Assembly (NCBI RefSeq): GCF_058153355.1
Contig: NZ_CM177019.1
Direction: 5' to 3' (one strand)
DNA: 64,000 bases
Shown in pieces: positions 37,966 through 54,645 of the stretch (position 1 is its first letter; every line of letters begins with the position of its first letter). The translations under genes and the position numbers were made by a program. The notes under the pieces were generated by a model. That model searched no databases and was not told where the DNA came from. It saw only the letters and a program-made list of their open reading frames with translations.

Positions 37966-38180
37966 GCCGAGTCCTTTGTGCGAGGAAAAATATCAGTATG
38001 GCCTGGTGATGGGAAAAAGGGCAGAAAATGTTGATGGTTTGTTACTTCCCAATAAATCACATATTTATCATGGTGATATAAATATTTTCCTAATTGTTCT
38101 TATCTGACAGATATCTCACTTAAGGCTTTCTTATAAATCTGTAGGGTTTGCACCATGAGTGCGGTAGCTATGAGGTTTAT

Positions 38181-40493
38181 ATGTCCTCAGAAGGATTACG
38201 TTTCACGCTGTCGGTGGCCGGTATCGTGGAGATGGCGACGGCGGTGGTGAGCTTCCGTCTGTACCAGCACCACTGCACGCCGTTCATCCTGGATGTGGAT
38301 ATCGCCAGCGGGCTGCCCGACCTGACGGCGGAGGATTTTCTGGAGAAGAGCGCGGTGCTGACGGTCTGGCAGGGTGATATCCCGCAGCGTTACGTCAGCG
38401 GTATCGTGACGGAGGTGCAGCTCGGTGAGAACAACGACTGGCAGATGCGTTATTCCCTGAGCATCAGCCCGCCGCTGTGGCGGGCAGGGTTACGGCAGAA
38501 CTTCCGTATCTTCCAGCAGCAGGACATTCAGACGATATCAGCACAGCTTCTGAGAGAGAACGGGGTGACGGCGTGGATGCCGCTGTTCTATGAGGCGCAC
38601 CCGGCGCGGGAGTTCTGCGTGCAGTACGGGGAGAGCGACCTGGCATTCCTGACCCGGCTGTGGGCGGAGGAAGGTATCTTCTTTTATGAGCGCTGCGGTC
38701 AGGAAGGGCCGGAGCAGAAGCTGGCGGTGTGTGATGACGTGGCGGGGCTGACGGGAATGGGGGCGCTGGCGTTTAACCCGAATACCACGACCGGGGGAAC
38801 GACGGAGTACATCAGTGAGTTTCGTTACCGTGCGCAGATAAGCGTGGCGTCGGTGGAGACGCAGGATTATACGTTCAAAACGCCGGGGTGGCCGGGGTAC
38901 TACAGCCATGACGGGGAGAGCCTGAACGGGCAGGGAACGCAGTACGAGATATTTGATTATCCGGGGCGTTTCAAGGATGAGCAGCATGGCCAGGATTTTG
39001 CGCGTTACCAGACGGAAGGGTGGCGGAACGGGGCGGAGACGGCGAGCGGGGTGTGTAACACGGCGCGGCTGTGGCCGGGAACGCGGTTCCGGCTGACGGG
39101 CCATCCCTCAGAGACGCTGAACCGGGAATGGCAGGTTGTGGGAAGCACACTGCGGGGAGAACAGCCGCAGGCGCTGCACGGGAGTCACGGTGAAGGGACG
39201 ACACTGAGCAATCAGTTTGAGGTGATACCGGCAGACAGGACGTGGCGTCACGCGCCGCTGCCGAAGCCGAAGGTGGACGGCCCGCAGAGTGCCATCGTGA
39301 CCGGGCCGAAGGGTGAGGAGATATTCTGCGACGAGCATGGCCGGGTACGGGTGAAGTTTCACTGGGACCGTTATCACGGGATGACGGAGGAGAGTTCGTG
39401 CTGGATACGGGTGTCGCAGGCATGGGCGGGACCGGGGTTCGGCAATCTGGCGATACCGCGTGTGGGTCAGGAAGTGATAGTGGACTTTCTGAACGGCGAC
39501 CCGGACCAGCCCATTGTGACGGGGCGGACCTACCATGAAGATAACCGTTCACCGGGGGATTTACCGGGCACGCGGACGCAGATGACCATCCGCTCGAAGA
39601 CCTATAAAGGAAGCGGCTTTAATGAACTGCGTTTCGAGGATGCGACGGACAGTGAGCAGGTGTATATCCACGCGCAGAAGAACATGGACACGGAGGTGCT
39701 TAACGACCGGACGACGGACGTGAAGCATGACCATACGGAGACCATCGGTAACGACCAGAAGATAAGGGTGGTGAAGGGGCAGACGGTTGAGGTCGGCACC
39801 AGAAAAGAAGGGGGTCACGACCAGAGTATCACGGTGGCGAACGACCGGCGCATAACGGTACGTAATGACCAGACGCTGAAGGTGACGAATGACCGGACGG
39901 TGAGCGTGAGTCACGATGACGGCCTGTATGTCAGAAACGACCGTAAAGTGACGGTGGAAGGGAAGCAGGAGCATAAGACGACGGGGAACCATATCAGCCT
40001 GGTGGAGGGAAAGCACAGTCTGGAGGTGAAGGGCGACCTGGCGGAGAAGGTGAGTGGCGCGCTGGGGATCAAGGTGGACGGGGATATCGTGCTGGAGAGC
40101 AGCAGCCGGATAAGCCTGAAAGTGGGCGGCTCGTTCGTGGTGATACACTCTGGCGGTGTGGATATTGCGGGGCCGAAGATAAACCTCAACGGGGGAGGCA
40201 GTCCGGGGACGCCAGTACAGACGTTACAACCGGTGGTACTGGAGGCGCTGGAGGATGAGAATGATGATGAGAACCCTGAAAAATATACTCTCCAGTTCCA
40301 TTTTACAGACGATGACGGGATACCGTATTCAGAGACACGCTACATTGCCTTCTTTGAGGACGGCACGCAGACGCGAGGGGAGACGGATGAAAATGGGTAT
40401 ACGGAAACATTCTCCACTGACAGCGAGCAGACAATCGAAGTCAGATTGTTGCATTTGAATATCGATATGATATGGGGAGGGATTAATGAATAG
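38181..40493 (+). CDS. vgrG: Type VI secretion spike protein VgrG (copy 1) with ~80-aa C-terminal extension (possible transthyretin-like adaptor domain)
   Basis: 770 aa from MSSEGLRFTLSVAGIVE…; gp27-like N-domain, gp5-like OB/beta-helix region with repeated VxVxV-type strands (…ITVANDRRITVRNDQTLKVTNDRTVSVSHDD…), then …VVIHSGGVDIAGPKINLNGGGSPG and an extension …YTLQFHFTDDDGIPYSETRYIAFFEDGTQTRGETDENGYTETF…. No YD repeats, so not Rhs. Confidence 0.9.
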   Translation: MSSEGLRFTLSVAGIVEMATAVVSFRLYQHHCTPFILDVDIASGLPDLTAEDFLEKSAVLTVWQGDIPQRYVSGIVTEVQLGENNDWQMRYSLSISPPLWRAGLRQNFRIFQQQDIQTISAQLLRENGVTAWMPLFYEAHPAREFCVQYGESDLAFLTRLWAEEGIFFYERCGQEGPEQKLAVCDDVAGLTGMGALAFNPNTTTGGTTEYISEFRYRAQISVASVETQDYTFKTPGWPGYYSHDGESLNGQGTQYEIFDYPGRFKDEQHGQDFARYQTEGWRNGAETASGVCNTARLWPGTRFRLTGHPSETLNREWQVVGSTLRGEQPQALHGSHGEGTTLSNQFEVIPADRTWRHAPLPKPKVDGPQSAIVTGPKGEEIFCDEHGRVRVKFHWDRYHGMTEESSCWIRVSQAWAGPGFGNLAIPRVGQEVIVDFLNGDPDQPIVTGRTYHEDNRSPGDLPGTRTQMTIRSKTYKGSGFNELRFEDATDSEQVYIHAQKNMDTEVLNDRTTDVKHDHTETIGNDQKIRVVKGQTVEVGTRKEGGHDQSITVANDRRITVRNDQTLKVTNDRTVSVSHDDGLYVRNDRKVTVEGKQEHKTTGNHISLVEGKHSLEVKGDLAEKVSGALGIKVDGDIVLESSSRISLKVGGSFVVIHSGGVDIAGPKINLNGGGSPGTPVQTLQPVVLEALEDENDDENPEKYTLQFHFTDDDGIPYSETRYIAFFEDGTQTRGETDENGYTETFSTDSEQTIEVRLLHLNIDMIWGGINE
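39163..40040. repeat. Near-identical ~0.9-kb vgrG 3'-core repeat, copy 1 of 3
   Basis: Sequence and six-frame antisense ORFs are identical to 43497-44374 and 49075-49900 (e.g. ORF 39602-39799 = 43935-44132 = 49459-49656). Confidence 0.85.
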
Positions 40494-40576: not shown

Positions 40577-41422
40577 ATGGGAGATGGAAAGGGTAGTACG
40601 AGCGGAAAAAGCCAGAGCGGTGAACAGTGTGTAGTTTTAAAGGAGGGAAAAATTACTAATGATTTTAAAATAATGATGAGAGAGGCTCTGAAGGCGCTGA
40701 TGGCTGTATTGAAGAAAAGAGTAGAAGATCTTGGTGATAAATGGGGAGAGGAACAAAATCAGGAGTTTATAAATATATTTGGTATTGATGGAAATACTTA
40801 TATTAAATTAGAGTTCCCTTTCGGGGGGCGTAAGGTTATGTTTCCAGAGAATATAAAGGCAAGGGATTATATGAGAAATGGCGTTACTCGCCTGTATGAG
40901 ATATGTGGGGAATTATCTGTGGAAGGTGATTGTGTAGACGTTACTATTCATGACCATTTCCTCAAACGTGATGCCAATTGTAATCTTGTTCTTAATGACA
41001 AAGGGGGTAATGAATATGTTGACAAAGACGTAATCAGGCCCAAAACCGGTAACTTTGTGAATTGTACAGATAATGACGCTTATGCTGCCAATGTAACTTA
41101 CGATCAGATTTTGGGTGTAAAACCTGGAGGCTTTAAAAGTTTGGTAAGTATAACTATAGGACAAAGATTTATAGATAGGCCACCCACTGGGAAAAACTCT
41201 AAGGCATCGACACTCTGCCATGAACTATCTCACTTTATAAGGTACGGGGATTCATTTAAGTTTGGAGGCATGTGGACGGAAGATATGCCGGTAGATATAG
41301 AGTATAATACAGGTGACGAATATATTGTTCATGCCACTAAATTAAAAAATGATAAAAAATCAGAACTATTTCAGAATGCATATAATATCGAACGTTATTT
41401 CGAGATTCATGTACCATATTGA
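40577..41422 (+). CDS. Putative T6SS effector, HExxH zincin-like metallopeptidase candidate
   Basis: 281 aa from ATG 40577 (RBS aaggagg upstream); AT-rich; HELSH motif at 41219-41233 followed by …GGMWTEDMPVDIEYNTGDEY…; no signal peptide; directly downstream of vgrG-1. Confidence 0.55.
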   Translation: MGDGKGSTSGKSQSGEQCVVLKEGKITNDFKIMMREALKALMAVLKKRVEDLGDKWGEEQNQEFINIFGIDGNTYIKLEFPFGGRKVMFPENIKARDYMRNGVTRLYEICGELSVEGDCVDVTIHDHFLKRDANCNLVLNDKGGNEYVDKDVIRPKTGNFVNCTDNDAYAANVTYDQILGVKPGGFKSLVSITIGQRFIDRPPTGKNSKASTLCHELSHFIRYGDSFKFGGMWTEDMPVDIEYNTGDEYIVHATKLKNDKKSELFQNAYNIERYFEIHVPY

Positions 41423-41446
41423 TGCTTTTATTTGACGGGGGAGTAT

Positions 41447-42355
41447 ATGCTTGCTAGATGGATTGTTTTTATTGTTTTTTTTGCGCATCCAATATTTGCT
41501 TATGATATCTCTGGCGATTATGCTGTTCATTACAGATATGGGAAGTTATATTGGAATGGAGTAATGGACAAACTTGGTGTCTATCCTCGTGTAGAGCCGA
41601 CAAGGCTTAATTATTATGATTATTATGATGATCTTTCAGCCTATGCTGTTTTTCAATATTATACTATCAGTAAAAATGAGAGTCAGTATAATCAAGATAA
41701 AAATAAAATATATCTTCATCTTTCCGTGCATCAGAAAGAAAATATTGTAGCAGCTGCAGTGGTTTTATCGAATAAAAGCCAGGGATCTTATTTTGTTCAT
41801 CGACTAACTCTTCCTCTTGACGTTAACGGCGGGCCTTACTCTTCCTTGTGTAGTGGTGTGTTTATACCGATAATGGATAACATTCAGTTGGATTTTTTAA
41901 AAAAAACAAAATGTAGCTTTGGTGAATGGAAAAATAAATCCGTTTGGCACGAGATATTAACAGGGAAAGAGCTATCCTTTGATGTCATATTGAACGATTA
42001 TTATGCCTTTTTACCGGGCATTCATCGTTATAATATAGGAACGGTAGAATTTACAATAGTTAATCAAGAGTGGTTTACAGAACAATGTATATATGAGTAT
42101 TTTCTTTCTATTATGAACTGGCGGGCAGAAAGTGAGTGTACTAATCCTATAGATAAAATAAGATATGGTATAGAGGAGTGGCGGGTTTGGAGAATTTGTG
42201 GACCTTATCGTGGGTCAGGTCTATTTCAGGATTTTTTAGCACGCTTTGGCTATCATGGCGGTAATGATAATATATTCAAAATAAGATCAAATCAGGTTGT
42301 GGTTACTATTGATGGGGATAGGGCATCTCCTCCTTATTCGTTGAGGAATTATTAA
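41447..42355 (+). CDS. Putative cognate immunity protein (secreted/periplasmic) for the HExxH effector
   Basis: ~303 aa with N-terminal signal peptide MLARWIVFIVFFAHPIFA; AT-rich; starts 24 bp after the effector stop; no recognisable family. Confidence 0.45.
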   Translation: MLARWIVFIVFFAHPIFAYDISGDYAVHYRYGKLYWNGVMDKLGVYPRVEPTRLNYYDYYDDLSAYAVFQYYTISKNESQYNQDKNKIYLHLSVHQKENIVAAAVVLSNKSQGSYFVHRLTLPLDVNGGPYSSLCSGVFIPIMDNIQLDFLKKTKCSFGEWKNKSVWHEILTGKELSFDVILNDYYAFLPGIHRYNIGTVEFTIVNQEWFTEQCIYEYFLSIMNWRAESECTNPIDKIRYGIEEWRVWRICGPYRGSGLFQDFLARFGYHGGNDNIFKIRSNQVVVTIDGDRASPPYSLRNY

Positions 42356-42510
42356 TGTTAACTTATTGTCATGGCTACAATTCGTTGGTTTTCCTGTTGA
42401 GATGATAATATATATGAGAAAAACAGGCAATGAACCAGTGAGAGAATATCAGAAGATACGGTCAACATCGGTTAATTACTTTTTCCTGTAGCGATACCAG
42501 GGAGGTCATC

Positions 42511-44712
42511 ATGTCATTAAAAGGGCTGCGCTTTACGCTGACGGTGGACGGACTGGTGCCGGAGACGTTTGCGGTGGTGGATTTCCGCCTCACGCAGGCA
42601 TACTCATCGCCGTTCGTCCTGGATGTGGACGTTGCCAGCGACTCGTTCCGCCAGACGGCGGAGAAGCTGCTGGAGAAGGGGGCCGTACTGACCATCTGGC
42701 AGGGTGGCACGGCGCTGCGTTATGTGAGCGGTGTGGTGTCGGGGTTCGGCATGAAGGAGCACAACGGCTGGCAGATGCAGTACCACCTTCAGATACGTCC
42801 GCCCCTGTGGCGCAGCGGGCTGCGCCAGAACTACCGAATCTTCCAGCAGCAGGACATTCAGGCCATCTCCGCCACGCTGTTAAACGAGGACGGAGTGACG
42901 CAGTGGACGCCGCGCTTTTATGAGAGCCACCCGGCACGGGAGTTCTGCGTCCAGTACGGTGAAAGCGACATGGCGTTTCTGACCCGGCTGTGGGCGGGGG
43001 AAGGCATCTTCTTTTATGACAGATACGCTGACGACAGCCCGGAGCAGACGCTCACGCTGTGCGATGATGTGGCGGGCCTGCCGGTGTACGGGGAGATACC
43101 GTTTAACCCGAACACCCGTGAGGTGACGACGGCGTGCATCAGCCTGTTCCGCTACCAGGCGCAGGTGCGGCCCTCGCAGGTGCGTTCAAAAGACCACACG
43201 TTTAAGGTGCCGGACTGGCCGGGTATTTACATTGAGGATGCTGAAAACCTCAACGGGCAACTGAAGCAGTACAAAATCCTGGACTGGCCGGGGCGCTACA
43301 AGGACGAGCAGCATGGTCAGGACTTTACCCGCTACCGGCTGGAAGGGCTGCGTAACAGTGCTGAAACCGCCACAGGTATCAGTAACTCCCCGGCGCTGTG
43401 GCCGGGACGGCGGTTCACCTTGACGGGGCATCCGGTACAGGGAGCGAACCCGAACCGTGAGTGGCAGGTGGTGAGCAGCACGCTGACGGGGAGCCAGCCG
43501 CAGGCGCTGCACGGGAGTCACGGTGAAGGGACGACACTGAGCAATCAGTTTGAGGTGATACCGGCAGACAGGACGTGGCGTCACGCGCCGCTGCCGAAGC
43601 CGAAGGTGGACGGCCCGCAGAGTGCCATCGTGACCGGGCCGAAGGGTGAGGAGATATTCTGCGACGAGCATGGCCGGGTACGGGTGAAGTTTCACTGGGA
43701 CCGTTATCACGGGATGACGGAGGAGAGTTCGTGCTGGATACGGGTGTCGCAGGCATGGGCGGGACCGGGGTTCGGCAATCTGGCGATACCGCGTGTGGGT
43801 CAGGAAGTGATAGTGGACTTTCTGAACGGCGACCCGGACCAGCCCATTGTGACGGGGCGGACCTACCATGAAGATAACCGTTCACCGGGGGATTTACCGG
43901 GCACGCGGACGCAGATGACCATCCGCTCGAAGACCTATAAAGGAAGCGGCTTTAATGAACTGCGTTTCGAGGATGCGACGGACAGTGAGCAGGTGTATAT
44001 CCACGCGCAGAAGAACATGGACACGGAGGTGCTTAACGACCGGACGACGGACGTGAAGCATGACCATACGGAGACCATCGGTAACGACCAGAAGATAAGG
44101 GTGGTGAAGGGGCAGACGGTTGAGGTCGGCACCAGAAAAGAAGGGGGTCACGACCAGAGTATCACGGTGGCGAACGACCGGCGCATAACGGTACGTAATG
44201 ACCAGACGCTGAAGGTGACGAATGACCGGACGGTGAGCGTGAGTCACGATGACGGCCTGTATGTCAGAAACGACCGTAAAGTGACGGTGGAAGGGAAGCA
44301 GGAGCATAAGACGACGGGGAACCATATCAGCCTGGTGGAGGGAAAGCACAGTCTGGAGGTGAAGGGCGACCTGGCGAGGAAGATTACCGGTGCGCTGGGA
44401 ATGAAGGTCCGGAATGAAATCGTACTGGAGAGTGGCGGTAAAATCACCCTAAAGGTGGGTGGTTCGTTTGTGGTCATCCATTCAGGGGGCGTGGACATCG
44501 TCGGGCCGAAAATCAATCTCAATAGCGGCGGTAGTCCGGGAACGCCGGTGCCGACGCTACGACCGGCGGTTTTGAAAGCGCTGGCAGATTATGACAATGG
44601 CGGACCTGGAACTGAAGGGGCGGAGCCACCACGGAAAAGTGTACAGGAAGCCTTTGATCCTCCCCAGCAGGATAAGGTACCGCCACAACGGCCGGGAAGA
44701 TTCTCACGATAA
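42511..44712 (+). CDS. vgrG: Type VI secretion spike protein VgrG (copy 2)
   Basis: 733 aa from MSLKGLRFTLTVDGLVPETFAVVDF…; same architecture as copy 1; short Pro/Gln-rich C-terminal tail. Confidence 0.9.
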   Translation: MSLKGLRFTLTVDGLVPETFAVVDFRLTQAYSSPFVLDVDVASDSFRQTAEKLLEKGAVLTIWQGGTALRYVSGVVSGFGMKEHNGWQMQYHLQIRPPLWRSGLRQNYRIFQQQDIQAISATLLNEDGVTQWTPRFYESHPAREFCVQYGESDMAFLTRLWAGEGIFFYDRYADDSPEQTLTLCDDVAGLPVYGEIPFNPNTREVTTACISLFRYQAQVRPSQVRSKDHTFKVPDWPGIYIEDAENLNGQLKQYKILDWPGRYKDEQHGQDFTRYRLEGLRNSAETATGISNSPALWPGRRFTLTGHPVQGANPNREWQVVSSTLTGSQPQALHGSHGEGTTLSNQFEVIPADRTWRHAPLPKPKVDGPQSAIVTGPKGEEIFCDEHGRVRVKFHWDRYHGMTEESSCWIRVSQAWAGPGFGNLAIPRVGQEVIVDFLNGDPDQPIVTGRTYHEDNRSPGDLPGTRTQMTIRSKTYKGSGFNELRFEDATDSEQVYIHAQKNMDTEVLNDRTTDVKHDHTETIGNDQKIRVVKGQTVEVGTRKEGGHDQSITVANDRRITVRNDQTLKVTNDRTVSVSHDDGLYVRNDRKVTVEGKQEHKTTGNHISLVEGKHSLEVKGDLARKITGALGMKVRNEIVLESGGKITLKVGGSFVVIHSGGVDIVGPKINLNSGGSPGTPVPTLRPAVLKALADYDNGGPGTEGAEPPRKSVQEAFDPPQQDKVPPQRPGRFSR
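43497..44374. repeat. Near-identical ~0.9-kb vgrG 3'-core repeat, copy 2 of 3
   Basis: See copy 1. Confidence 0.85.
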
Positions 44713-44721
44713 GGACTGAAC

Positions 44722-47211
44722 ATGAAAATCAGCCATCCCATCAGGGATAAAGAAGGCAAAGAGTTTCGCTCACTGGATGAGATAATGCGGCTTATTGACA
44801 AAGAAGCGCACGGAACCTGGCTGCTGGGTGGAAACGGGCTGTGGCACGGCGGGATACATATCAGTGACGTGTCTAATCCGTTATCAGCCCTGAAACCGGA
44901 TACCGCCGCTACCGGAGAACCGGTTCCTCTTCAGTTTATGGCCGATGGCACCATTGCGGCGTACCGGATAAATAATGATTACCTGAAAGGCCCCTACAAA
45001 GGGCAGCAACTCCGTTACAGCAGCACATTTGTTCTGGTGAAATCGCAGTGCCAGCCAGACCCGCAAAAAAAAGAAAGCTGGCTGGAATTTTACTGTCTCT
45101 ATATGCATCTGGCCCCGGTGAACGATTATCCCGGCTCCCCCTGCTATAAAGTTAAAACCGGGCATGGTGGCATATTGCTGCACCGATACATCCCGGGAAA
45201 GAACGGCCTTCCCGAGGGGCAGGAAAGCGGAGATCATGCCACGTACTGGATACCCCCGAAAATCAGCGGAAACAGGACACTTAATGCGGGAGATCGGTTT
45301 GTGTCATCCCGGACCGGACGTTTTTACGTGACCAATAACGGCCAGCCGGTCCTGACGACATTCGGACTGGTTCGCCTGCTGGAAGGCAATAAACCGGGGA
45401 ATGAGCAGTACTGGGTGACCCTGGATCCGGATCTGATGGAGTCAGATGGCGAAATACAGATGCTGATGCCTGAGTGGATGCAGAAGGCGAAGGCAAAAGG
45501 CATTTTTGACTCGGTACAGACGGTCGACGAAACGGAAGAGTGGAAAGTCAGTGCCGGAACACCGGTCGGATTTATGGGATGCGAGGATTATCCTGGCGAG
45601 GGAAGCGGTGAGATTGAGCGCGAGTGGTTCGTCCATCTGGAGGTTCTGAGTACAGACCCGAATATGCCAAAGTTCTTATCCAACCCGGCAGGCGTTAAGG
45701 GAGAAAAACGGACTGTTCTGGCACCAAAAGGGATAATTTTATACACCCGGCAGGCCGTTCCGGGACAGGAGGTATTTACCGCAACCGCAGCCACGCTGGG
45801 TGCTCAGCGCGTTCTTCCGCGGGAAGCCACGACACCAGTCACGGATGAATCGCAGCAGTGGTGGTTTAATATCACCGGAACCGGCTGGCTGCCACAAAAG
45901 GATGTTGAAGAGGCCGGACAGTATGATTTACTGAAGCTGGGTTTTCAACCGCTGGAGGAGAACAGCAGCGGTGACATGACGTACAGCCCGTACGAAGGAT
46001 GGGTGCCGGAAGCGTTTGACTCAATAAGCCGTGCCGCAGAACAGGGAGATGAGTGGCTGTATGAGCAGGTACCGCCCTTTTATCGTGAGCTGATGGCGGG
46101 TATGGATCAGGACGGTGATGGAAAAGTGACGGAGGAAGAGATCAGACAGGCGCTGATCGTGCGTGAACCACTGGTGAGAAATGTGGTGAATCATCTGATA
46201 GTTAAACACCACAGCGAATGGTACGGAGGGCGCTCGACAGGGCGGTGGGAAGGATTTTATAAAGATCTGGATACAGAGGAAGTGGCATACTGTGAGAAGT
46301 GGCAGCTGGATCTGGAGTGGATGAGCGGGGTATCTCCGTTTAATAGTGATGATGCTGTGTGGCATTTTCATCCGGTTGTGTTTTTGGACGCTATTAATTC
46401 CAAATCTGTGTGTGCTTGCAACAGAGATATAACATTAGATGAATTAAAAAAAGTTGCTCCTGCAGTAAGTGAAGGTCTTCTCAAAAGGTACCTCTACGAT
46501 ATAAATGCAGGGTTTATTCGGTTTGGTATGACCACTTGTAGAGAAAAAGCCCATTTTCTTGCTCAAATTATTCACGAGAGCGGTTATTTTAGATATACCA
46601 AAGAAATTAATGGTGAATCAGCTTCATATAGTCCGTGGTATGGCCGAGGCTTAATACAAGTTACAGGCGAAAGTAATTACACCGCCTATGGGGAATATAT
46701 CAATGAGGACGTAACATCTTCAGATTCCGCAAGAGATAAACTCATATCCTCCCCACATTGCGTATTATCTGCGTTTTGGTATTTCAATATATTCAAAAGA
46801 ATAAATGAAGATGCTAAAAATGATGATTTTAATAAAATTACAGTAGTGATTAATGGAGGGTATAATCATTATGATGAACGGTTGTCGATATTTAATAAAT
46901 TGGTTACCTCACTTGCTGCCGAGCATTTAAATCAGAAAGAAATGAACGACGATTTCTTGTTTGATGATAGTGACGTATATGATAATAAAGTATATGCTTT
47001 GGGATGGGGGATATGGCATGATCCTGATAGCTCCCGAAGAGGGACGATCAAGAGTAACGAAGAAGCATTAAAAGGTTATAGAAGGGCGAAAGAATTAATT
47101 GACCTGCATCCGTTTCCTCAGGAAGGGCGTGAGGGTGATAGAAAAGTATATGGAATAGAAAAAAGGAATATATCCACATTTGTAGAGAGACGAATAACTG
47201 AACTGGAGTAA
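44722..47211 (+). CDS. Large T6SS effector: possible M23/LytM-like N-region, EF-hand calcium-binding motif, C-terminal GH19/lysozyme-like peptidoglycan hydrolase domain
   Basis: 829 aa; EF-hand loop DQDGDGKVTEEE (~46102); C-terminal …REKAHFLAQIIHESGYFRYTKEINGESASYSPWYGRGLIQVTGESNYTAYG… (from ~46537) matches the GH19 / 'predicted chitinase' catalytic signature; N-region WHGGIHISDV…ADGTIAAY…YMHL resembles a divergent M23 peptidase (tentative). Confidence 0.7.
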   Translation: MKISHPIRDKEGKEFRSLDEIMRLIDKEAHGTWLLGGNGLWHGGIHISDVSNPLSALKPDTAATGEPVPLQFMADGTIAAYRINNDYLKGPYKGQQLRYSSTFVLVKSQCQPDPQKKESWLEFYCLYMHLAPVNDYPGSPCYKVKTGHGGILLHRYIPGKNGLPEGQESGDHATYWIPPKISGNRTLNAGDRFVSSRTGRFYVTNNGQPVLTTFGLVRLLEGNKPGNEQYWVTLDPDLMESDGEIQMLMPEWMQKAKAKGIFDSVQTVDETEEWKVSAGTPVGFMGCEDYPGEGSGEIEREWFVHLEVLSTDPNMPKFLSNPAGVKGEKRTVLAPKGIILYTRQAVPGQEVFTATAATLGAQRVLPREATTPVTDESQQWWFNITGTGWLPQKDVEEAGQYDLLKLGFQPLEENSSGDMTYSPYEGWVPEAFDSISRAAEQGDEWLYEQVPPFYRELMAGMDQDGDGKVTEEEIRQALIVREPLVRNVVNHLIVKHHSEWYGGRSTGRWEGFYKDLDTEEVAYCEKWQLDLEWMSGVSPFNSDDAVWHFHPVVFLDAINSKSVCACNRDITLDELKKVAPAVSEGLLKRYLYDINAGFIRFGMTTCREKAHFLAQIIHESGYFRYTKEINGESASYSPWYGRGLIQVTGESNYTAYGEYINEDVTSSDSARDKLISSPHCVLSAFWYFNIFKRINEDAKNDDFNKITVVINGGYNHYDERLSIFNKLVTSLAAEHLNQKEMNDDFLFDDSDVYDNKVYALGWGIWHDPDSSRRGTIKSNEEALKGYRRAKELIDLHPFPQEGREGDRKVYGIEKRNISTFVERRITELE

Positions 47212-47216
47212 TTGAT

Positions 47217-47627
47217 ATGAAAGTTAATTTATTGGTTTTACTGTTTTGTTTGGTGCCTTGTTGTTTATTGGCTAAACAACAAACAACGGTAGGCTGTTTT
47301 AGCGCTGGGAAAACAAATTTAAAGTTTGTTGAAATATCGTCTGGCGATATTTTTTTAGGTTATGTGATTTATGAGAAATCCTCAAAATTTATACCTCTTG
47401 CGTTTATAAATAAATTAGAAGTGACTTTCGATGACAGGCCTTCTGAATTTTCTTATGCATGGAGCGAGGTTGTAAATGGAAAAATTAATGGGTTGTATGT
47501 TGTTTCCACACAAGGTGCAAGATTTAATTTGTTTCATTATAAATCAATAAGTGGGAAAACAACTGAGTTTGAAGAAAATATTGAGGCATATAATGATGAT
47601 GGTACTGATTGCAAATGGACTGGATGA
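47217..47627 (+). CDS. Putative periplasmic immunity protein for the lysozyme-like effector
   Basis: 136 aa with N-terminal signal sequence MKVNLLVLLFCLVPCCLLA; begins 5 bp after the effector stop; AT-rich. Confidence 0.45.
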   Translation: MKVNLLVLLFCLVPCCLLAKQQTTVGCFSAGKTNLKFVEISSGDIFLGYVIYEKSSKFIPLAFINKLEVTFDDRPSEFSYAWSEVVNGKINGLYVVSTQGARFNLFHYKSISGKTTEFEENIEAYNDDGTDCKWTG

Positions 47628-47775
47628 CCATTGTGCAGTTTTTTATGAAATCGATGCTGTGTTATTAAAATAATAATGCGACTAGGTTGAATTTGTTTAT
47701 TATTAATTTAAATGTTTTATGATTTTAAGTTAGACATGAATAACTGACTGGAAAATTATTTTTGAGGGATATCGT

Positions 47776-49070
47776 ACAGGCAGGCAGGGAAAGATCACGT
47801 AACGCTGCTTTTTTGTACTATACAATTCGCATTTTATGTTTGAAAATTGAGATATTCCTCATTACCTGAAGCTGTTTTTTATTGCTTATACATGATCAAA
47901 TACTCCTTACATAATTAAGGAGAACAAAATGGTACTTAAAAAATTGATGGAACATATTTCTATTATCCCCGATTACAGACAAGCCTGGAAAGTGGAACAT
48001 AAATTATCGGATATTCTACTGTTGACTATTTGCGCCGTTATTTCGGGTGCAGAAGGCTGGGAAGATATAGAGGATTTTGGGGAAACACATCTCGATTTTT
48101 TGAAGCAATATGGTGATTTTGAAAATGGTATTCCTGTTCACGATACCATTGTCAGAGTTGTATCCTGTATCAGTCCTGCAAAATTTCACGAGTGCTTTAT
48201 TAACTGGATGCGTGACTGCCATTCTTCAGATGATAAAGGCGTCATTGCAATTGATGGAAAAACGCTCCGGCACTCTTATGACAAGAGTCGCCGCAGGGGA
48301 GCGATTCATGTCATTAGTGCGTTCTCAACAATGCACAGTCTGGTCATCGGACAGATCAAGACGGATGAGAAATCCAATGAGATTACAGCTATCCCAGAAC
48401 TTCTTAACATGCTGGATATTAAAGGAAAAATCATCACAACTGATGCGATGGGTTGCCAGAAAGATATTGCAGAGAAGATACAAAAACAGGGAGGTGATTA
48501 TTTATTCGCGGTAAAAGGAAACCAGGGGCGGCTAAATAAAGCCTTTGAGGAAAAATTTCCGCTGAAAGAATTAAATAATCCAGATCATGACAGTTAAGCG
48601 ATTAGTGAAAAGAGTCACGGCAGAGAAAAAATCCGTCTTCATATTGTTTGCGATGTCCCTGATGAACTTATTGATTTCACGTTTGAATGGAAAGGTCTGA
48701 AGAAATTATGCGTGGCAGTCTCCTTTCGGTTAATAATAGCAGAACAAAAGAAAGAGCCAGAAATGACGGTCAGATATTATATCAGTTCTGCTGATTTAAC
48801 CGCAGAGAAGTTCGCCACAGCAATCCGAAACCACTGGCACGTGGAGAATAAGCTGCACTGGCGTCTGGACGTGGTAATGAATGAAGACGACTGCAAAATA
48901 AGAAGAGGAAACGCCGCAGAATTATTTTCAGGGATACGGCACATCGCTATTAATATTTTAACGAATGATAAGGTATTCAAGGCAGGGTTAAGACGTAAGA
49001 TGCGAAAAGCAGCCATGGACAGAAACTATCTCGCGTCAGTCCTTGCGGGGAGCGGGCTTTCGTAATCTTG
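47776..49070 (+). mobile_element. ISAs1-family (H-repeat / ISEc1-like) element inserted into vgrG copy 3
   Basis: ~1.3 kb; contains the H-repeat transposase gene; left-end sequence (gtacaggcagggaaagatcac…) recurs at 51856 and ~53976; right end abuts vgrG sequence beginning mid-gene (…FEVIPADRTW…). Confidence 0.7.
47929..49065 (+). pseudogene. ISAs1-family transposase (H-repeat protein, YhhI-like) with an in-frame TAA at 48595-48597
   Basis: ORFs 47929-48597 and 48712-49065 are in the same frame and both match the H-repeat protein ([58 protein letters not shown]… and …[41 protein letters not shown]…); full span would encode 378 aa. Confidence 0.8.
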
Positions 49071-49074
49071 CCCT

Positions 49075-49900
49075 GGAGGTGATACCGGCGGACAGGACGT
49101 GGCGTCACGCGCCCCTGCCGAAGCCGAAGGTGGACGGCCCGCAGAGTGCCATCGTGACCGGGCCGAAGGGCGAGGAGATATTCTGCGACGAGCATGGCCG
49201 GGTACGGGTGAAGTTTCACTGGGACCGTTATCACGGGATGACGGAGGAGAGTTCATGCTGGATACGGGCGTCGCAGGCATGGGCGGGACCGGGGTTCGGC
49301 AATCTGGCGATACCGCGTGTGGGTCAGGAAGTGATAGTGGACTTTCTGAACGGCGACCCGGACCAGCCCATTGTGACGGGGCGGACATACCATGAGGACA
49401 ACCGTTCACCGGGGGATTTACCGGGCACGCGGACGCAGATGACCATCCGCTCGAAGACCTATAAAGGAAGCGGCTTTAATGAACTGCGTTTCGAGGATGC
49501 GACGGACAGTGAGCAGGTGTATATCCACGCGCAGAAGAACATGGACACGGAGGTGCTTAACGACCGGACGACGGACGTGAAGCATGACCATACGGAGACC
49601 ATCGGTAACGACCAGAAGATAAGGGTGGTGAAGGGGCAGACGGTTGAGGTCGGCACCAGAAAAGAAGGGGGTCACGACCAGAGTATCACGGTGGCGAACG
49701 ACCGGCGCATAACGGTACGTAATGACCAGACGCTGAAGGTGACGAATGACCGGACGGTGAGCGTGAGTCACGATGACGGCCTGTATGTCAGAAACGACCG
49801 TAAAGTGACGGTGGAAGGGAAGCAGGAGCATAAGACGACGGGGAACCATATCAGTCTGGTGGAGGGAACGCACAGTCTGGAGGTGAAGGGCGACCTGGCG
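49075..49900. repeat. Near-identical vgrG 3'-core repeat, copy 3 of 3
   Basis: See copy 1. Confidence 0.8.
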
Positions 49901-51492
49901 AGGAAGATTACCGGTGCGCTGGGAATGAAGGTCCGGGATGAAATCGTACTGGAGAGTGGTGGTAAAATCACCCTGAAGTGGGTGGCTCGTTTGTGGTCGT
50001 TCATTCTGGTGGTGTGGATATTGTCGGACCGAAAATAAATCTGAATTGCGGGCGCAGTCCGGGGACGCCGATAAATACACTACAACCGGCAGTTATGGAC
50101 GCTCTGGCTGACGAGCAGTATGACAGAGGGAATGCTGGCGGCGGGAATGACGGAGAGCCTAGTGATGAGGATGAATCAGAAGGTGGAGAAGAAGACAAGG
50201 ACGATTCAGATGAACTGGTAATTCCTGTATACGCAAAATCTTGTCTGAAGGAGAAAGGCTGCACTGATGCTGGTACGACCATGGAGCCATCGAAACATTT
50301 TGGTGATATGGCTCTATTTGCCCAGCCAGTGGAGGATGACTGTTGCGGCTATGGTACACACTATCATGACGATGAAGTGGAGCAACTTGCGCAGTCAGCA
50401 AAAAAAACCTCAGGAGCGAACTCACTGACGGGGGAAATGACAGTTGCGTCAGCGGGTGTTGCGGTTCCACTAGCGGCGGAACAGTCTGCGGGAGTTTTAA
50501 CTCGCGTATGGGGAACATTAGGGGCATGGGGTGGAGAAGGTTTTTTAAGTGTATCAAAAACGGTGCCAGCCCTTGGTGTCCTAGTATCAGCACTATATCC
50601 AATACCTGCCGGTGAAGGTAGTGATAAAGTTCCTGGACGGGATGAACAGTGGCTCGAAAATGAGCTACGTCGTAAAGCGCAATCTGGAGAGACGGCAGCT
50701 ACGCGGGCGCGCTTTCTCTTTCAGCGGAATACTGCTGGTGAATTGAGGACATACGGATACCACACACCCGCAGGTTCGGAACTTGAAGGTGTTCGGGTAG
50801 CATTGATGGAGTGGAATAAGGAATTTTCCCGTTATGAATTTTCACCTGTGTCTGATTCGGGACCAAAAATATTTTGGACGCCTGCAAAGCCAGAAGGTTC
50901 AGAGCAGCCCATACACACCGGAACTCCTGTCGAACCAGTTGATCTACCTGATATTTATGTTAATCCGATACCCGATGAAAAAACAGATATCACCACGCCG
51001 CCTTCTCCAATGCCGGAGGAGCGAAATTTTAATGACTGGATACTTGTCTTTCCTGACGGTGCGGAATTAACACCAATATATGTGTATCTGAAAACTGCAA
51101 GGGATGTAGCGGGAACAGTAACAGGTAAGGGGGAGGTGTTAGCAGGTACAGGAAGATGGCTGTCGCAGGCGGGGAAAAGCTTAGGAGTGCCAATTCCACA
51201 ACAGGTCGCAAATAAACTTCGGAGTAAGTCATTTAACAATTTTGATGAATTCATGGCAGCTTTCTGGACTGCTGTAGGTGAATGTCCAGAACTATTGAGC
51301 CAATTTAATAAAGCTAACCAAACGTTGATAAAGCGTGGACGCGCACCTTATACTATATCAAGACAAAGAGTTGGGGGGCGAGGTACATTTGAAATTCATC
51401 ATATTGACGAAATCCAATATGGGGGAGAAGTCTATGATATTGATAATCTTAGAGTAAACACACCTAAAAACCACATACGATTGCATAAATAA
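49075..51492 (+). pseudogene. vgrG: vgrG copy 3, 'evolved' VgrG with C-terminal colicin E9/pyocin-type HNH DNase domain; 5'-truncated by ISAs1 and carrying a -1 frameshift near 49976
   Basis: Starts mid-gene at the ISAs1 right end; vgrG frame runs to ~49976 where ctgaagtgggtgg has lost one G relative to copies 1/2 (ctgaaggtgggtgg); downstream frame continues through a linker to …GVPIPQQVANKLRSKSFNNFDEFMAAFWTAVGECPELLSQ…RQRVGGRGTFEIHHIDEIQYGGEVYDIDNLRVNTPKNHIRLHK (~51169-51489), which aligns closely with the colicin E9 DNase domain. Confidence 0.8.
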
Positions 51493-51505
51493 AAAGGAGG
51501 TAGTA

Positions 51506-51778
51506 ATGGAGTTTAAAAATAATCTAGAAGATTATACGGAAGATGAATTTATCGAACTTCTAAATAATTTTTTTGAACCACCTGAGGAATTGCATGGCGA
51601 TAAGTTGTCGAAGTTTATTGATGATCTTGTAAGTCATTTTATTAGAATCACTCAGCACCCAGATGGTAGTGATTTGATATTCTATCCATCTGAAGATAGA
51701 GAAGATAGTCCCCAAGGGATTGTTGATGAGTTAAAACGATGGCGAGCATCGCAGGGGCTAGGATGCTTTAAAATATAA
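51506..51778 (+). CDS. Colicin E9-type DNase immunity protein (Im9-like)
   Basis: 90 aa: MEFKNNLEDYTEDEFIELLNNFF…HFIRITQHPDGSDLIFYPSEDREDSPQGIVDELKRWRASQG aligns along its length with Im9 (MELKHSISDYTEAEFLQLV…[35 protein letters not shown]); strong RBS aaggagg; 13 bp after the DNase stop. Confidence 0.85.
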   Translation: MEFKNNLEDYTEDEFIELLNNFFEPPEELHGDKLSKFIDDLVSHFIRITQHPDGSDLIFYPSEDREDSPQGIVDELKRWRASQGLGCFKI

Positions 51779-51855
51779 TGAAAATAAATACTCATCATAT
51801 TTTATTAAAATGATTGGTGTTTTTGTTATTAACCTTAAACCACTTCCTGAGAAGG

Positions 51856-52301
51856 TGGTACAGGGAAAGATCACCAGAAGTACACTTTTTGTACTAAATA
51901 ATTCGCATTTTATGTTCAATAATTGAGATATTCCTCATTACCTGAGGCTGTTTTTTATTGCTTATACATGATCAAATACTCCTTACATAATTAAGGAGAA
52001 CAAAATGGAACTTAAAAAATTGATGGAACATATTTCTGTTATTCCTGATTACAGACAAGCCTGGAAAGTGGAACATAAATTGTCGGATATTCTACTTTTG
52101 ACTATTTGCTCCGTCATTTCTGGTACAGAAGGCTGGCAAGATATAGAGAATTTTGGGGAAACACATCTCGATTTTTTGAAGCGACATGGTGATTTTTGAA
52201 ATGGTATTCCTGTTCACATACCATTGCCAGAGTTGTATCCTGTATCAGCCCTGCAAAATTTCATGAGTGCTTTATTAAAAGGAAACCAGGGGCGGCTTAA
52301 T
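51856..52301 (+). mobile_element. Degraded ISAs1/H-repeat remnant (left end plus internally deleted transposase fragment) fused to effector sequence
   Basis: Left-end sequence and transposase N-terminus ([58 protein letters not shown]…) present, then a deletion to the internal …KGNQGRLN segment, which joins directly to effector-2-like sequence at ~52302. Confidence 0.6.
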
Positions 52302-53465
52302 ATCACCGGAACCGGCTGGCTGCCACAAAAGGATGTTGAAGAGGCCGGACAGTATGATTTACTGAAGCTGGGTTTTCAACCGCTGGAGGAGAACAGCAGC
52401 GGTGACATGACGTACAGCCCGTACGAAGGATGGGTGCCGGAAGCGTTTGACTCAATAAGCCGTGCCGCAGAACAGGGAGATGAGTGGCTGTATGAGCAGG
52501 TACCGCCCTTTTATCGTGAGCTGATGGCGGGTATGGATCAGGACGGTGATGGAAAAGTGACGGAGGAAGAGATCAGACAGGCGCTGACCGTGCGTGAACC
52601 ACTGGTGAGAAATGTGGTGAATCGTCTGACAGTCAGACACCACAGCGAGTGGTACGGCGGTCGCTCGACGGGACGCTGGGAAGGGTTTTATAAAGATCTG
52701 GACACCGAGGAAGTGGCATACTGTGAAAAGTGGCAGCTGGATCTGGAGTGGATGAGCGGGGTGTCTCCGTTTAATAGTGATGATGCTGTGTGGCATTTTC
52801 ATCCGGTTGTGTTTTTGAATGCTATTAATAATAGCAATTACCCAAAAACTCCTGTGAATAATGAACTTATTCCATTGGAATTTTTACGATTTTATAACGG
52901 AGATACCATTGATGATGCAGACTATGAAAATGCTGCAAGGACACTACAATGCGAAGTGGCTGCAATTAAAGCTGTTGCAAAAACTGAAACTGGTAGTTCC
53001 GGTAGCTATTTTAAATTTGAACAAGAAGATGATTACGTCCCCTCAATTCTTTTTGAAAGACATCATTTCCATCGATATACGAATGGTGTGTATGATTCTC
53101 AACCTGATATTTCCAACAGCCGTTCTGGCGGTTATGGAACACGATCGGAGCAATATCAAAAATTACTTCGTGCATATGTTTTAGATAAGCAAGCTGCGCT
53201 TAAATCGGCATCGTGGGGTAAATTTCAGATATTGGCTTCAAATTACCAAGCTACCGGGTACTCTTCGCCCGAAGAGTTTATAATATCGATTTCAGAGTTA
53301 GAGAAAAACCATCTGGCGGCATTCATTAACTTCATAAAATCTAATCCTGTATTATTGCGTGCTATTAGAGATAAAGATTGGCTTAACTTTGCTCTATGTT
53401 ATAATGGGCAAAGTCAGCGAGGATATGATGACAGAATAAGGGCTAATTATGAGCAATATAGATAG
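52302..53465 (+). CDS. Orphan effector 3' module: conserved effector mid-region fused to a muramidase-like (PF11860/DUF3380-type) C-terminal domain; 5' end replaced by the H-repeat remnant
   Basis: 52302-52817 is ~97% identical to effector-2 45871-46386 (NITGTGWLPQKDVEEAGQYDLLK…EF-hand…VWHFHPVVFL), after which the sequence diverges into …AAIKAVAKTETGSSGSYFKFEQEDDYVPSILFERHHFHRYT…SASWGKFQILASNYQATGYSSPEEFI…NGQSQRGYDDRIRANYEQY, resembling the N-acetylmuramidase family (recalled motif pattern, not searched). Confidence 0.55.
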   Translation: MTGTGWLPQKDVEEAGQYDLLKLGFQPLEENSSGDMTYSPYEGWVPEAFDSISRAAEQGDEWLYEQVPPFYRELMAGMDQDGDGKVTEEEIRQALTVREPLVRNVVNRLTVRHHSEWYGGRSTGRWEGFYKDLDTEEVAYCEKWQLDLEWMSGVSPFNSDDAVWHFHPVVFLNAINNSNYPKTPVNNELIPLEFLRFYNGDTIDDADYENAARTLQCEVAAIKAVAKTETGSSGSYFKFEQEDDYVPSILFERHHFHRYTNGVYDSQPDISNSRSGGYGTRSEQYQKLLRAYVLDKQAALKSASWGKFQILASNYQATGYSSPEEFIISISELEKNHLAAFINFIKSNPVLLRAIRDKDWLNFALCYNGQSQRGYDDRIRANYEQYR

Positions 53466-53898
53466 AGCATTAATTTTTATTTTTTTATCTGGAATTCCCT
53501 GGACTCTACACGCAGGAAATAATTATTTTTTATGTAATACATCCAAAGGAACTTTGTCATTAACAAGTTTTGGTGAAACGTTGATTTATGAAATGAATAG
53601 TCAGCATGGGAATAAATTTCAATTCATTTCAGATGGACCAATGTATTCAGGATTTTTTTATAATCATTACTCCAGATTTCAAACGGATTACTTTAGCGTT
53701 AGTTTTATTCAAAGTGGATATAAGTACTCCGTGTTTAGCAATTACGACAACGGTAGTAACATGCGAGGGGTTAGTGTCATTGATATGAAAACAAAAAAAG
53801 AATACGTTTATAATTGCAAAGATTATAAAGTGGACAGGCTTTATAATCTGAAAAAAAAGCTTAAATGTGATATTAATAATGTACTAAGTTGTCAGTAA
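53449..53898 (+). CDS. Putative periplasmic immunity protein for the muramidase-like toxin module
   Basis: 149 aa, hydrophobic N-terminus MSNIDRALIFIFLSGIPWTLHA; overlaps the effector stop by 17 nt; very AT-rich. Confidence 0.4.
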   Translation: MSNIDRALIFIFLSGIPWTLHAGNNYFLCNTSKGTLSLTSFGETLIYEMNSQHGNKFQFISDGPMYSGFFYNHYSRFQTDYFSVSFIQSGYKYSVFSNYDNGSNMRGVSVIDMKTKKEYVYNCKDYKVDRLYNLKKKLKCDINNVLSCQ

Positions 53899-53975: not shown

Positions 53976-54645
53976 ATAAAGGTAAAGACCATATAACGCC
54001 GATTTTTTGCACTAAACAATTAGCACTAAATGTCCAATAATCAAGATATCCCTTATTATTTAATAAGTGTTTTCATAGCTTATATATATTCAGACACTCC
54101 TTACATAAACAAGGAGAAAAAATGGAACTTAAAAAATTAATGGAGCATATTTCTACTGTCCCGATTACAGACAAGTCTGGAAAGTAGAGTATAAATTATC
54201 AGATATCCTAGTGCTGATTATTTTCGCCATCCTTTCCGGAGCTGAAGGATGGGAAGATATAGAGGATTCTGGTGAGACTCATCTCGATTTGTTGAAGCAA
54301 TATGGTGATTTTTAATATGGTATTCCTATTCACGATATCATTGCCAGAGTTGTGTCCTGTATCAGTCCTGGAAAATTTCACGAGTTCTTTATTAGCTGGA
54401 TGTGTGACTGTCATTCTTCAGATAATAAAACCATCATCGCAATAGATGGAAAAGCACTCCAGCACTTTTTTGATTAGCATCGTCGCAGAGGAACAATTCA
54501 TAATCATTGCGATCTCGACGATGTATAGTCTGATCCTGCGGCAGAACAAGACGGATAAAAAATCTAATGAGAGCACACTCATCAAGAACTTCTCAACCTA
54601 ATGAATATTAAAGAAAAATCATCGCAGCCAATGAAGTAATATGCA
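53976..54645 (+). mobile_element. Heavily degraded ISAs1/H-repeat remnant (multiple stops/frameshifts, 3' truncated)
   Basis: Recognisable but broken transposase N-terminus ([11 protein letters not shown]…[28 protein letters not shown]…); preceded at 53921-53975 by another fragment of the effector mid-region (…YDLLKL…LEEN…). Confidence 0.55.

Follow-up and report, generated by a model that had tools for sequence, protein, structure and literature searches.

We analysed a 64,000-nucleotide stretch of an Escherichia coli chromosome (contig NZ_CM177019.1 of assembly GCF_058153355.1), referred to as the window, which carries an auxiliary type VI secretion system (T6SS) vgrG island in the yibF|yibH hot spot. 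The vgrG spike genes of this island are GC-rich and the effector and immunity genes behind them (the cargo) are AT-rich, and this contrast is very probably the footprint of modular cassette exchange within the island. Rather than marking a single recent import next to a gene long resident, it is a family-wide trait found over many hosts. The GC content at third codon positions (GC3) switches where homology between paralogues ends, both at the junctions of vgrG cores with their tails and at the junctions of effector carriers with their toxin domains.

The initial annotation had claimed a sharp GC contrast between vgrG and cargo and had named a sliding-window GC check beforehand as a possible refutation. 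A sliding GC profile and a likelihood segmentation were run over the window, and a significant difference between spike and cargo was found. The vgrG cores (38181-40254, 42511-44584 and 49076-50123) have GC contents of 60.7, 60.1 and 58.0%, respectively (pooled, 59.9%), and the four cargo intervals (40577-42355, 46400-47627, 51506-51778 and 52820-53898) have 36.1, 35.2, 35.2 and 33.9% (pooled, 35.3%); the backbone outside the island is at 50.7%. In 200-bp windows the GC fraction was 0.29 to 0.42 for cargo (n=20) and 0.535 to 0.68 for spike (n=25), with zero overlap (Mann-Whitney p = 1e-8), and each class also differed from the 232 backbone windows (p ~2e-11). The segmentation gave GC-rich blocks of 60.9% (38206-40254), 57.3% (42523-46338) and 55.5% (49030-50801) and AT-rich blocks of 37.1% (40255-42522), 34.0% (46339-48031) and 38.6% (50802-54683).

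The contrast is mainly synonymous. GC3 is 0.74 to 0.80 in vgrG and 0.24 to 0.31 in cargo, and for the 36 backbone genes of the window it has a mean of 0.559 (standard deviation [sd], 0.065; range, 0.417 to 0.69), with vgrG above and cargo below every one of them. A codon-conformity index built from these 36 genes was used in place of the classical codon adaptation index. Conformity to the flanking native genes was low for most cargo (z = -3.1 to -3.9; -2.3 for immunity gene 4) and closer to native for vgrG (z = -0.9 to -2.0), which bore out the atypical codon usage proposed earlier. The same can be said of the Lys/Asn/Ile/Tyr-type bias, as the fraction of Phe, Tyr, Met, Ile, Asn and Lys residues (FYMINK) is 0.30 to 0.44 in cargo and about 0.20 in vgrG; cargo proteins are also poorer in Gly, Ala, Arg and Pro (GARP). 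The 559-aa carrier part of the 829-aa effector has a GC3 of 0.59 and is backbone-like, neither spike-like nor cargo-like, and the island therefore holds at least three compositional classes. The long antisense open reading frames (ORFs) that had been remarked on in vgrG do exist (127 to 227 aa) and are spurious and not diagnostic, because codon-order shuffles reach the observed length in 23 to 50% of cases and the native mtlA has a longer antisense open run (345 codons). They were rejected as real genes, their length being fully accounted for by codon composition.

Changepoints in total GC were placed at 40254, 42522, 46338, 49029 and 50801. They do not sit at gene ends but within vgrG1, within the 829-aa effector and within the extension of vgrG3. 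The earlier description of the cargo genes as AT-rich thus holds for the intervals, while their boundaries had to be moved into the ORFs. Homology between vgrG1 and vgrG2 stops at 40251 and 44584, respectively, next to the changepoint at 40254. Beyond the cores, GC3 falls from 0.75 to 0.53 in the tail of vgrG1, from 0.75 to 0.37 in that of vgrG2 and from 0.74 to 0.38 in that of vgrG3. The 829-aa effector has its GC3 changepoint at nt 46329, and its homology to the orphan copy runs to 46398; in the orphan copy the corresponding positions are 52769 and 52829. The conserved carrier part was observed to end in ...DDAVWHFHPVVFL(D/N)AIN immediately before the variable toxin domain (about 46370-46398 and 52800-52829). 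By analogy with DPxGL in Rhs proteins or VENN in CdiA, this may be a junction motif.

The island consists of two intact vgrG-effector-immunity modules and two 5′-truncated orphan modules with insertion sequence (IS) remnants of ISAs1 between them. Module 1 comprises vgrG1 (38181-40493), an M35-like protein with an HExxH motif and an ORF with a signal-peptide-like start, and module 2 comprises vgrG2 (42511-44712), the 829-aa effector (44722-47211) and a small signal-peptide ORF (47217-47627). Orphan module 3 has a frameshifted ISAs1, a vgrG fragment with Pyocin_S and HNH DNase domains and an intact Im gene. Orphan module 4 has an ISAs1 fragment, a carrier piece fused to an N-acetylmuramidase, a small signal-peptide ORF and the last ISAs1 fragment, and both orphan modules are bounded by ISAs1 remnants. 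Positions 39162-40043 of vgrG1 and 43495-44376 of vgrG2 are 100% identical over 882 bp, and the flanks and the 5′ kilobase are about 70% identical. The tract indicates recent intragenomic gene conversion in the conserved part of vgrG, and its complete identity amid such divergent flanks points to active recombination in this homology handle.

The segment at 48204-51860 (3,657 bp) is extra in the window relative to the otherwise collinear islands of strains N96 and MFDS1022581. It contains the remainder of ISAs1, the truncated vgrG-PyocinS-HNH gene and the Im gene and is flanked by 419-bp direct ISAs1 repeats (47785-48203 and 51861-52278; 92% identity). This arrangement points to either an insertion in the window lineage or a deletion in the N96 lineage, presumably by recombination between the IS copies. 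The N96 counterpart of orphan module 3 is an uninterrupted vgrG-PyocinS-HNH ORF of 1151 aa at ybfA|ybgA, the slot of rhsC in K-12. The nearest relatives have the PyocinS-HNH/Im module elsewhere on the chromosome. The RefSeq annotation of this N96 gene (L003 6914-10369) gives a pseudo tssI and a separate S-type pyocin coding sequence (CDS); the stretch nevertheless translates as one 1151-aa VgrG-PyocinS-HNH fusion. Also in N96, a third member of the 829-aa effector family was seen at L003 11141-12796, with an N terminus of 97.8% amino acid identity to aa 382-559 of the effector, a different C-terminal "glycoside hydrolase family" domain and a transposase fragment in front, and it is a further orphan on the same carrier handle.

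The gene order of the window is yiaY-selB-selA-yibF, island, yibH-yibI-mtlA-mtlD, and in K-12 the same yibF|yibH slot contains rhsA-yibA-yibJ-yibG-... The island is 16.5 kb in size, spans about 38 to 54.7 kb and has every gene on the plus strand. It has the properties of an island in its composition and codon usage, atypical against the backbone, in its sporadic distribution and in the other content of the slot elsewhere. No tRNA gene was found within 33000-58000 and no integrase among the window ORFs; the IS traces in the island are the three ISAs1 remnants. In a set of 5,426 complete E. coli genomes, coverage of the island reached 80% or more in only three (N96 and two MFDS strains), and cargo cassettes 1, 2, 3 and 4 were present in 3, 3, 4 and 3 genomes, respectively, at 96 to 99.6% identity. 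The vgrG core family was found with at least 80% query coverage in 630 genomes and with any match in 1,096, the nearest vgrG outside the N96 lineage being only about 82% identical, and the C-terminal tail of vgrG1 alone was found in 625 genomes at about 91% identity.

The proposal of the initial annotation that the cargo was acquired horizontally is thereby upheld in a cassette-wise form, on the evidence of cassettes found in only three or four genomes, atypical codons, the GC3 switch at the end of homology, the bounding ISAs1 copies and the module found at another site in relatives. Its companion claim, that the spikes are older or from a different source, survives in part. The vgrG genes do form another compositional class and are far more widespread than the cargo, but greater age is not supported in view of a GC3 above that of all backbone genes, the distance to the nearest vgrG, the GC excess found in other genera (below) and the lack of Chi sites. 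Nine Chi sites (GCTGGTGG) were found in the window, all on the minus strand, compared to 1.85 expected by chance (4115, 7808, 15807, 22179, 28042, 30222, 31806, 58603 and 63348), and none of the nine is inside the 38-to-54.7-kb island, where about three would be expected at the backbone density. Chi sites were accordingly rejected as recombination hot spots in the vgrG handles. The strand of the island genes is opposite to the Chi-bearing strand. The plus-strand GC skew of the island (38000-54000) is +0.11 to +0.37 in GC-rich and AT-rich parts alike, and the cumulative skew climbs steeply over this whole range; in the upstream backbone (about 26 to 37.5 kb) the skew is roughly -0.12 to 0.

The generality of the contrast was assessed in a scan of one genome per species covering 80 vgrG loci from about 20 genera. 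The GC content of vgrG exceeded that of the upstream flank in 55 of 66 loci from other genera (mean, +3.9 points), from Photorhabdus and Xenorhabdus (flanks at about 0.43 to 0.44) to Citrobacter and Trabulsiella (about 0.52 to 0.54). Because of this excess, high vgrG GC looks like a family trait and not a mark of age or donor. The 3 kb downstream of vgrG are bimodal, either AT-rich (0.30 to 0.45) or GC-rich (0.53 to 0.65); all seven of the GC-rich downstream neighbors tested are Rhs proteins, and GC drops again further downstream there. Over the sampled loci, high GC is the tendency of carriers (VgrG and Rhs) and high AT that of toxin tips and immunity genes. The rhsA gene of K-12 has a GC3 of 0.727 up to codon 1227 and of 0.291 beyond it, and the GC content of yibA is 33.7%. 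The PAAR-vgrG-M35-hypothetical-ISAs1 island in the yncG slot of enteroaggregative E. coli (EAEC) 042 has a vgrG at 56.6%, an M35 gene at 32.4% and a downstream gene at 28.2% GC. Further M35 and immunity homologues at a Citrobacter werkmanii locus are likewise AT-rich (GC, 0.36 and 0.29).

In the exchange model that we favor, the conserved delivery parts (the gp27/gp5 cores of vgrG and the N-terminal carrier of the effector), which are shared among paralogues and strains and are GC-rich or backbone-like, would offer recombination its homology handles. The variable parts that do the killing (the C-terminal tails of vgrG, the toxin domains and the immunity genes), which are AT-rich and rare, would be swapped as cassettes. 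An incoming cassette would recombine via the conserved handle or via flanking ISAs1 copies, the unit being either tail, effector and immunity gene or toxin domain and immunity gene. The older cassette would then be displaced downstream as a 5′-truncated orphan that keeps its immunity gene. The data establish how the island is built and composed, where its breakpoints lie, how rare the cassettes are, the conversion tract and what else the slot contains in other strains. We infer the direction and the mechanism of these events, a role for H-NS and secretion by a T6SS with machinery outside the window; the effector and immunity functions are presumptive, except that those of the lysins and of the DNase with its Im partner are predicted from their domains. 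Several points weigh against cassette exchange. No exchange event was directly observed, and the extra module may reflect either insertion or deletion. At the vgrG3 extension the total-GC changepoint (50801) lies well away from the end of homology (about 50123), and only GC3 agrees. The carrier of the 829-aa effector is backbone-like, so the rule that carriers are GC-rich is not uniform, and the model leaves the origin of the AT-rich cargo and the GC-rich vgrG unexplained. Finally, with respect to the firing of the spikes, no T6SS core genes (tssA-M) were found within the 64-kb window.

H-NS silencing of the cargo is plausible as a prior from AT content and literature. Five tracts of at least 600 bp with at least 60% AT were found in the window, and the four of these in the island measure 675 to 1429 bp, with every 200-bp window at 60% AT or more; the cargo itself is 61 to 66% AT. 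The sole such tract outside the island (61624-62572), downstream of the mtl genes, covers a lipoprotein-like 227-aa ORF on the plus strand (62188-62871; GC, 39%; MSIKKALLSMLITLPLWVLTGCDY...), which probably represents one more small accessory gene. AT-rich genes are preferred targets of H-NS (PMC1550270), and the T6SS of enterohemorrhagic E. coli (EHEC) was reported to be H-NS repressed, although not every AT-rich gene is bound by H-NS (PMC13141884). A literature search for H-NS chromatin immunoprecipitation data on the rhsA slot or vgrG islands gave only a K-12 table from genomic SELEX (systematic evolution of ligands by exponential enrichment), in which HNS is flagged upstream of rhsD and rhsE and not at yibA, yibJ or yibG (PMC3946193); the search gave no H-NS data set for EAEC 042. 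Silencing of the cargo only is mechanistically awkward and unlikely, because the cargo sits in tight operons behind vgrG, with gaps of 5 to 80 nt.

Near-matches to the high-affinity H-NS motif TCGATAAATT occur at 3.4 per kb in cargo, about 0.2 in vgrG cores and 1.3 to 1.9 in the backbone. Compared with composition-matched shuffles, cargo 2 and 3 are above expectation and cargo 1 and 4 are at or below it. The motif density mostly follows AT content and was rejected as evidence of silencing, as were promoter-like sites (36 found against 27.5 in shuffles [sd, 5.5], within about 1.5 sd). Three of the five best sigma-70-like sites lie on the coding strand within the 3′ ends of toxin genes (46837-46866, 51325-51354 and 53378-53405), each 45 to 380 nt upstream of an immunity gene (47217, 51506 and 53449). 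From their consensus matches, these sites are candidate autonomous immunity promoters.

Other explanations of the contrast were weighed against cassette exchange. That it is a by-product of protein composition or ordinary regional heterogeneity is hardly credible. The cargo is indeed richer in FYMINK and poorer in GARP, and the backbone also has a few AT-rich spots, such as that at 61624-62572. However, the two classes differ most at synonymous third positions (0.75 compared to 0.27), so that the difference does not follow from amino acid content, and the nonoverlapping 200-bp windows and the location of both classes outside the GC3 range of the backbone genes also refute this reading. More serious is the proposal, close to that of the initial annotation, that the cargo was recently imported from AT-rich donors and is silenced by H-NS, with vgrG either an older resident or derived from a separate GC-rich donor. 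The cargo has a GC1 of about 0.45, a GC2 of about 0.33 and a GC3 of about 0.27, which by the Muto-Osawa and Lawrence-Ochman regressions resembles the equilibrium of a genome with about 35% GC and gives no sign of amelioration. The great rarity of the cassettes in E. coli, the long AT tracts of the island, the preference of H-NS for AT-rich genes and the repression of the EHEC T6SS are also in its favor. Against it, vgrG is not native-like (GC3 above that of all backbone genes, no Chi sites in the island and a nearest relative at about 82%), and it is GC-elevated relative to its flanks in hosts ranging from about 43 to 55% GC, which speaks for a trait of the family and against a donor signature. 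Divergent M35 and immunity homologues (27 to 46% amino acid identity; EAEC 042 and Citrobacter) are equally AT-rich; therefore, AT-richness is long-standing in the family and does not mark a recent import. The AT-rich genes of the same slot carry no HNS flag in the K-12 SELEX table, and the cargo is operonic with vgrG. A recent import was thus considered possible but somewhat doubtful.

Alternatively, the contrast may be kept in situ, AT-rich cassettes being favored for H-NS-type control and internal immunity promoters and GC-rich carriers arising by GC-biased gene conversion or by selection for handles that are proficient in recombination. This finds support in the same direction of deviation in many genera and in Rhs at the same slot, in the three sigma-70-like sites upstream of immunity genes, in the excess of TCGATAAATT near-matches over shuffles in cargo 2 and 3 and in the fact that vgrG cores do undergo gene conversion. 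The GC3 of the 882-bp converted tract (0.752) is, however, not above that of the unconverted 5′ parts (0.78 to 0.80), the promoter-like total is close to that of shuffles, and the motif density mostly tracks AT content, with cargo 1 and 4 at or below expectation. Maintenance in situ was consequently judged rather unlikely, and GC-biased gene conversion was rejected as the source of the high GC in vgrG for want of local support, the GC3 of the converted tract not being elevated. A related and still less probable proposal, offered tentatively, is that the AT-richness of T6SS, Rhs and VgrG cargo is an actively maintained property of a toxin-immunity pool shared across genera and not a donor fingerprint. 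It would be selected for H-NS-type control and for toxin-internal promoters that keep immunity genes, orphans included, expressed, and the breakpoints would mark nested exchange units (tail, effector and immunity gene, or toxin domain and immunity gene). This is compatible with the data because the same deviation occurs in hosts with about 43 to 55% GC, homologues with 27 to 46% identity are equally AT-rich and strong promoter-like sites closely precede three immunity genes. Modular cassette exchange accordingly remained the preferred explanation.

Table 1. Features of the vgrG island, with positions counted from the first nucleotide of the window
Feature	Position	Strand	Composition	Remarks
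Left island edge, intergenic yibF-vgrG1	37966..38180		37% GC	Presumed promoter region
vgrG1 core (gp27/gp5-like spike)	38181..40254	+	GC 60.7%, GC3 0.77
vgrG1 C-terminal tail	40255..40493	+	GC3 0.53	Without homology to vgrG2 or vgrG3
Effector 1, M35-like HExxH metallopeptidase	40577..41422	+	GC 37%, GC3 0.31
Putative immunity 1	41447..42355	+	GC 35%, GC3 0.27	Signal-peptide-like N terminus
vgrG2 core	42511..44584	+	GC 60.1%
vgrG2-specific Pro/Gly-rich C-terminal tail	44585..44712	+	GC3 down to 0.37
829-aa effector, N-terminal carrier (aa 1-559, EF-hand)	44722..46398	+	GC3 0.59
829-aa effector, C-terminal toxin domain	46399..47211	+	GC3 0.29	Similar to GH19-type endolysins/chitinases
Putative immunity 2	47217..47627	+	GC 32%, GC3 0.24	Signal-peptide-like N terminus; function presumed from position
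ISAs1-family (H-repeat) element, frameshifted	47785..49065	+		Adjoins truncated vgrG3
vgrG3 core fragment	49076..50123	+	GC 58%
vgrG3 C-terminal extension	50124..51492	+		Linker, S-type pyocin domain, colicin/pyocin HNH DNase
Im3, colicin/pyocin-type DNase immunity gene	51506..51778	+	GC 35%	Intact
ISAs1 5′ fragment	51861..52278	+		Direct repeat of 47785-48203, 92% identity
Orphan carrier fragment	52287..52829	+	GC3 0.58	96% identity to 45856-46398 (543 bp)
Orphan toxin domain, N-acetylmuramidase (PF11860)	52830..53465	+	GC3 0.26	Pfam Muramidase 3.7e-44
Putative immunity 4	53449..53898	+	GC 30%	Signal-peptide-like N terminus; function presumed from position
Degenerate ISAs1 fragment	53980..54626	+		80% identity to first copy; right island edge before yibH

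The assignments in Table 1 are supported by the following data. Both vgrG1 and vgrG2 have the Pfam domains Phage_GPD, Phage_base_V and Gp5_trimer_C and match TIGR03361 (E of about 1e-176 for the two; 6.7e-177 for vgrG1), and the N96 counterpart of vgrG1 is annotated as tssI. No strong sigma-70-like site was found in the presumed promoter region at 37966-38180. The tail of vgrG1, a putative TTR-like effector adaptor, has AT-rich homologues in EAEC 042, Citrobacter and Phytobacter. The vgrG3 fragment has lost about 1 kb at its 5′ end, and a 1-bp deletion at 49977 shifts its frame; its extension (GC3 of 0.38 dropping to 0.23) matches Pyocin_S (4.6e-32) and Col-Pyo_DNase (2.4e-49) in Pfam. The homologue of the element at 47785-49065 in relatives is named "ISAs1 family transposase" in RefSeq.

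Effector 1 had no match in Pfam or NCBIfam, and its designation as M35-like was deduced from the RefSeq names of its counterparts in relatives ("M35 family metalloendopeptidase" or "peptidase M35") and from a weak match to a peptidyl-Lys metalloendopeptidase in the PDB (E=0.04); it is 33% identical in amino acids to the M35 protein of the EAEC 042 island. Immunity 1 has 27% amino acid identity to the gene behind M35 in EAEC 042 and 29% to a C. werkmanii gene, and its function is presumed from its position and these homologous neighbors. Effector 1 and immunity 1 share one frame (40577-42355) with a single TGA between them (41420-41422), and the region is annotated in N96 as one 594-aa "M35 family metalloendopeptidase" and in MFDS1022581 as two CDS. 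Two genes seem more likely, because the second ORF has its own Shine-Dalgarno sequence (GGGGGAG) and ATG.

The toxin domain of the 829-aa effector (its last ~270 aa) includes a region that matches the endolysins 9ms7 (2e-13) and 4ok7 (8e-10) in the PDB, and it carries the RefSeq name "chitinase," and its carrier has no Pfam or NCBIfam family apart from the EF-hand. The toxin domains found at the vgrG modules are thus Pyocin_S with Col-Pyo DNase, Muramidase PF11860 and a GH19-endolysin-like domain. Im3 matches Pfam Colicin_Pyocin (PF01320; 1.5e-32) and has 100% amino acid identity to the N96 copy. Immunity 1, 2 and 4 had no match in Pfam or NCBIfam and were assigned by position, small size and signal-peptide-like N termini.

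For annotation, the drop in GC3 offers a cheap and accurate marker of where the scaffold ends and a swappable toxin-immunity cassette starts, also within ORFs. In this island it placed the limits of four cassettes correctly, including two without any match in family databases. Four very rare E. coli effector-immunity pairs are thereby flagged as candidate interbacterial weapons, with an M35-like peptidase, a GH19-like lysin, a PF11860 muramidase and a VgrG-fused HNH DNase as their effectors.

Neither the GC contrast nor the inference of horizontal transfer is new, since published descriptions of both go back decades for Rhs and to 2014 for T6SS effector modules, and the cassettes of the island are rare additions to kinds already known. 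In Rhs elements a G+C-rich core is joined to an A+T-rich tip or core extension, and the GC-poor region downstream contains dissociated tips, an arrangement explained by a C-terminal displacement model (Jackson et al. 2009, PMC2935791). Like K-12 rhsA, the island occupies the yibF|yibH slot, and the GC3 values of core and tip are close (0.73 and 0.29 for rhsA and 0.75 and 0.27 for the island). Further likenesses are the switch inside the ORF at the conserved/variable junction, the AT-rich immunity gene directly after it, the downstream orphan fragments that keep core homology and the ISAs1 or H-repeat remnants. In contrast to Rhs, the part of carrier is played by VgrG spikes and by the family of the EF-hand-containing 829-aa effector, the conserved part of which ends in ...AVWHFHPVVFL(D/N)AIN in the island. 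Although the island functions in the manner of an Rhs element, it does not count as one, since a YD-repeat protein is missing (no island protein had a Pfam match to RHS_repeat). For contact-dependent inhibition (CDI; cdiA-CT/cdiI) and Rhs, Poole et al. in 2011 reportedly described tandem orphan toxin-tip/immunity pairs downstream of the main gene that each keep short carrier homology. CDI differs in using type V (T5SS) two-partner secretion rather than a T6SS, and no CdiA, CdiB or VENN motif was found in the island.

Among T6SS, the effector modules of Vibrio cholerae have about 9% lower GC and were inferred to be independently acquired (Unterweger et al. 2014, PMC3988814). As there, conserved T6SS genes flank diverse effector-immunity regions of lower GC, which in V. 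cholerae include the C-terminal domain of an evolved VgrG, VgrG-3 (PMC3988814). The contrast in V. cholerae is about 9 points (about 51% compared to about 42%), whereas in the island it amounts to about 25 points and vgrG stands well above the genome mean. In V. cholerae, moreover, the clusters are fixed and have a single module each, and the island strings its modules in tandem, with orphans and IS remnants among them. The vgrG islands and VT effector modules of E. coli were catalogued by Ma et al. (2018), as summarized in PMC6730261. Like these islands, of which that of EAEC 042 at yncG is an example, the present one has, behind vgrG, a small effector, then an immunity gene and then a remnant of ISAs1, with peptidase- or lysozyme-like effectors, and its M35 protein and partner are homologous to those of EAEC 042 (33 and 27% amino acid identity) with the same GC contrast. 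It differs from the EAEC 042 island in occupying the rhsA slot instead of the rhsE slot and in having three vgrG copies with a gene-converted tract, and from the catalogued vgrG islands in that its cassettes are different alleles, present in three or four complete genomes.

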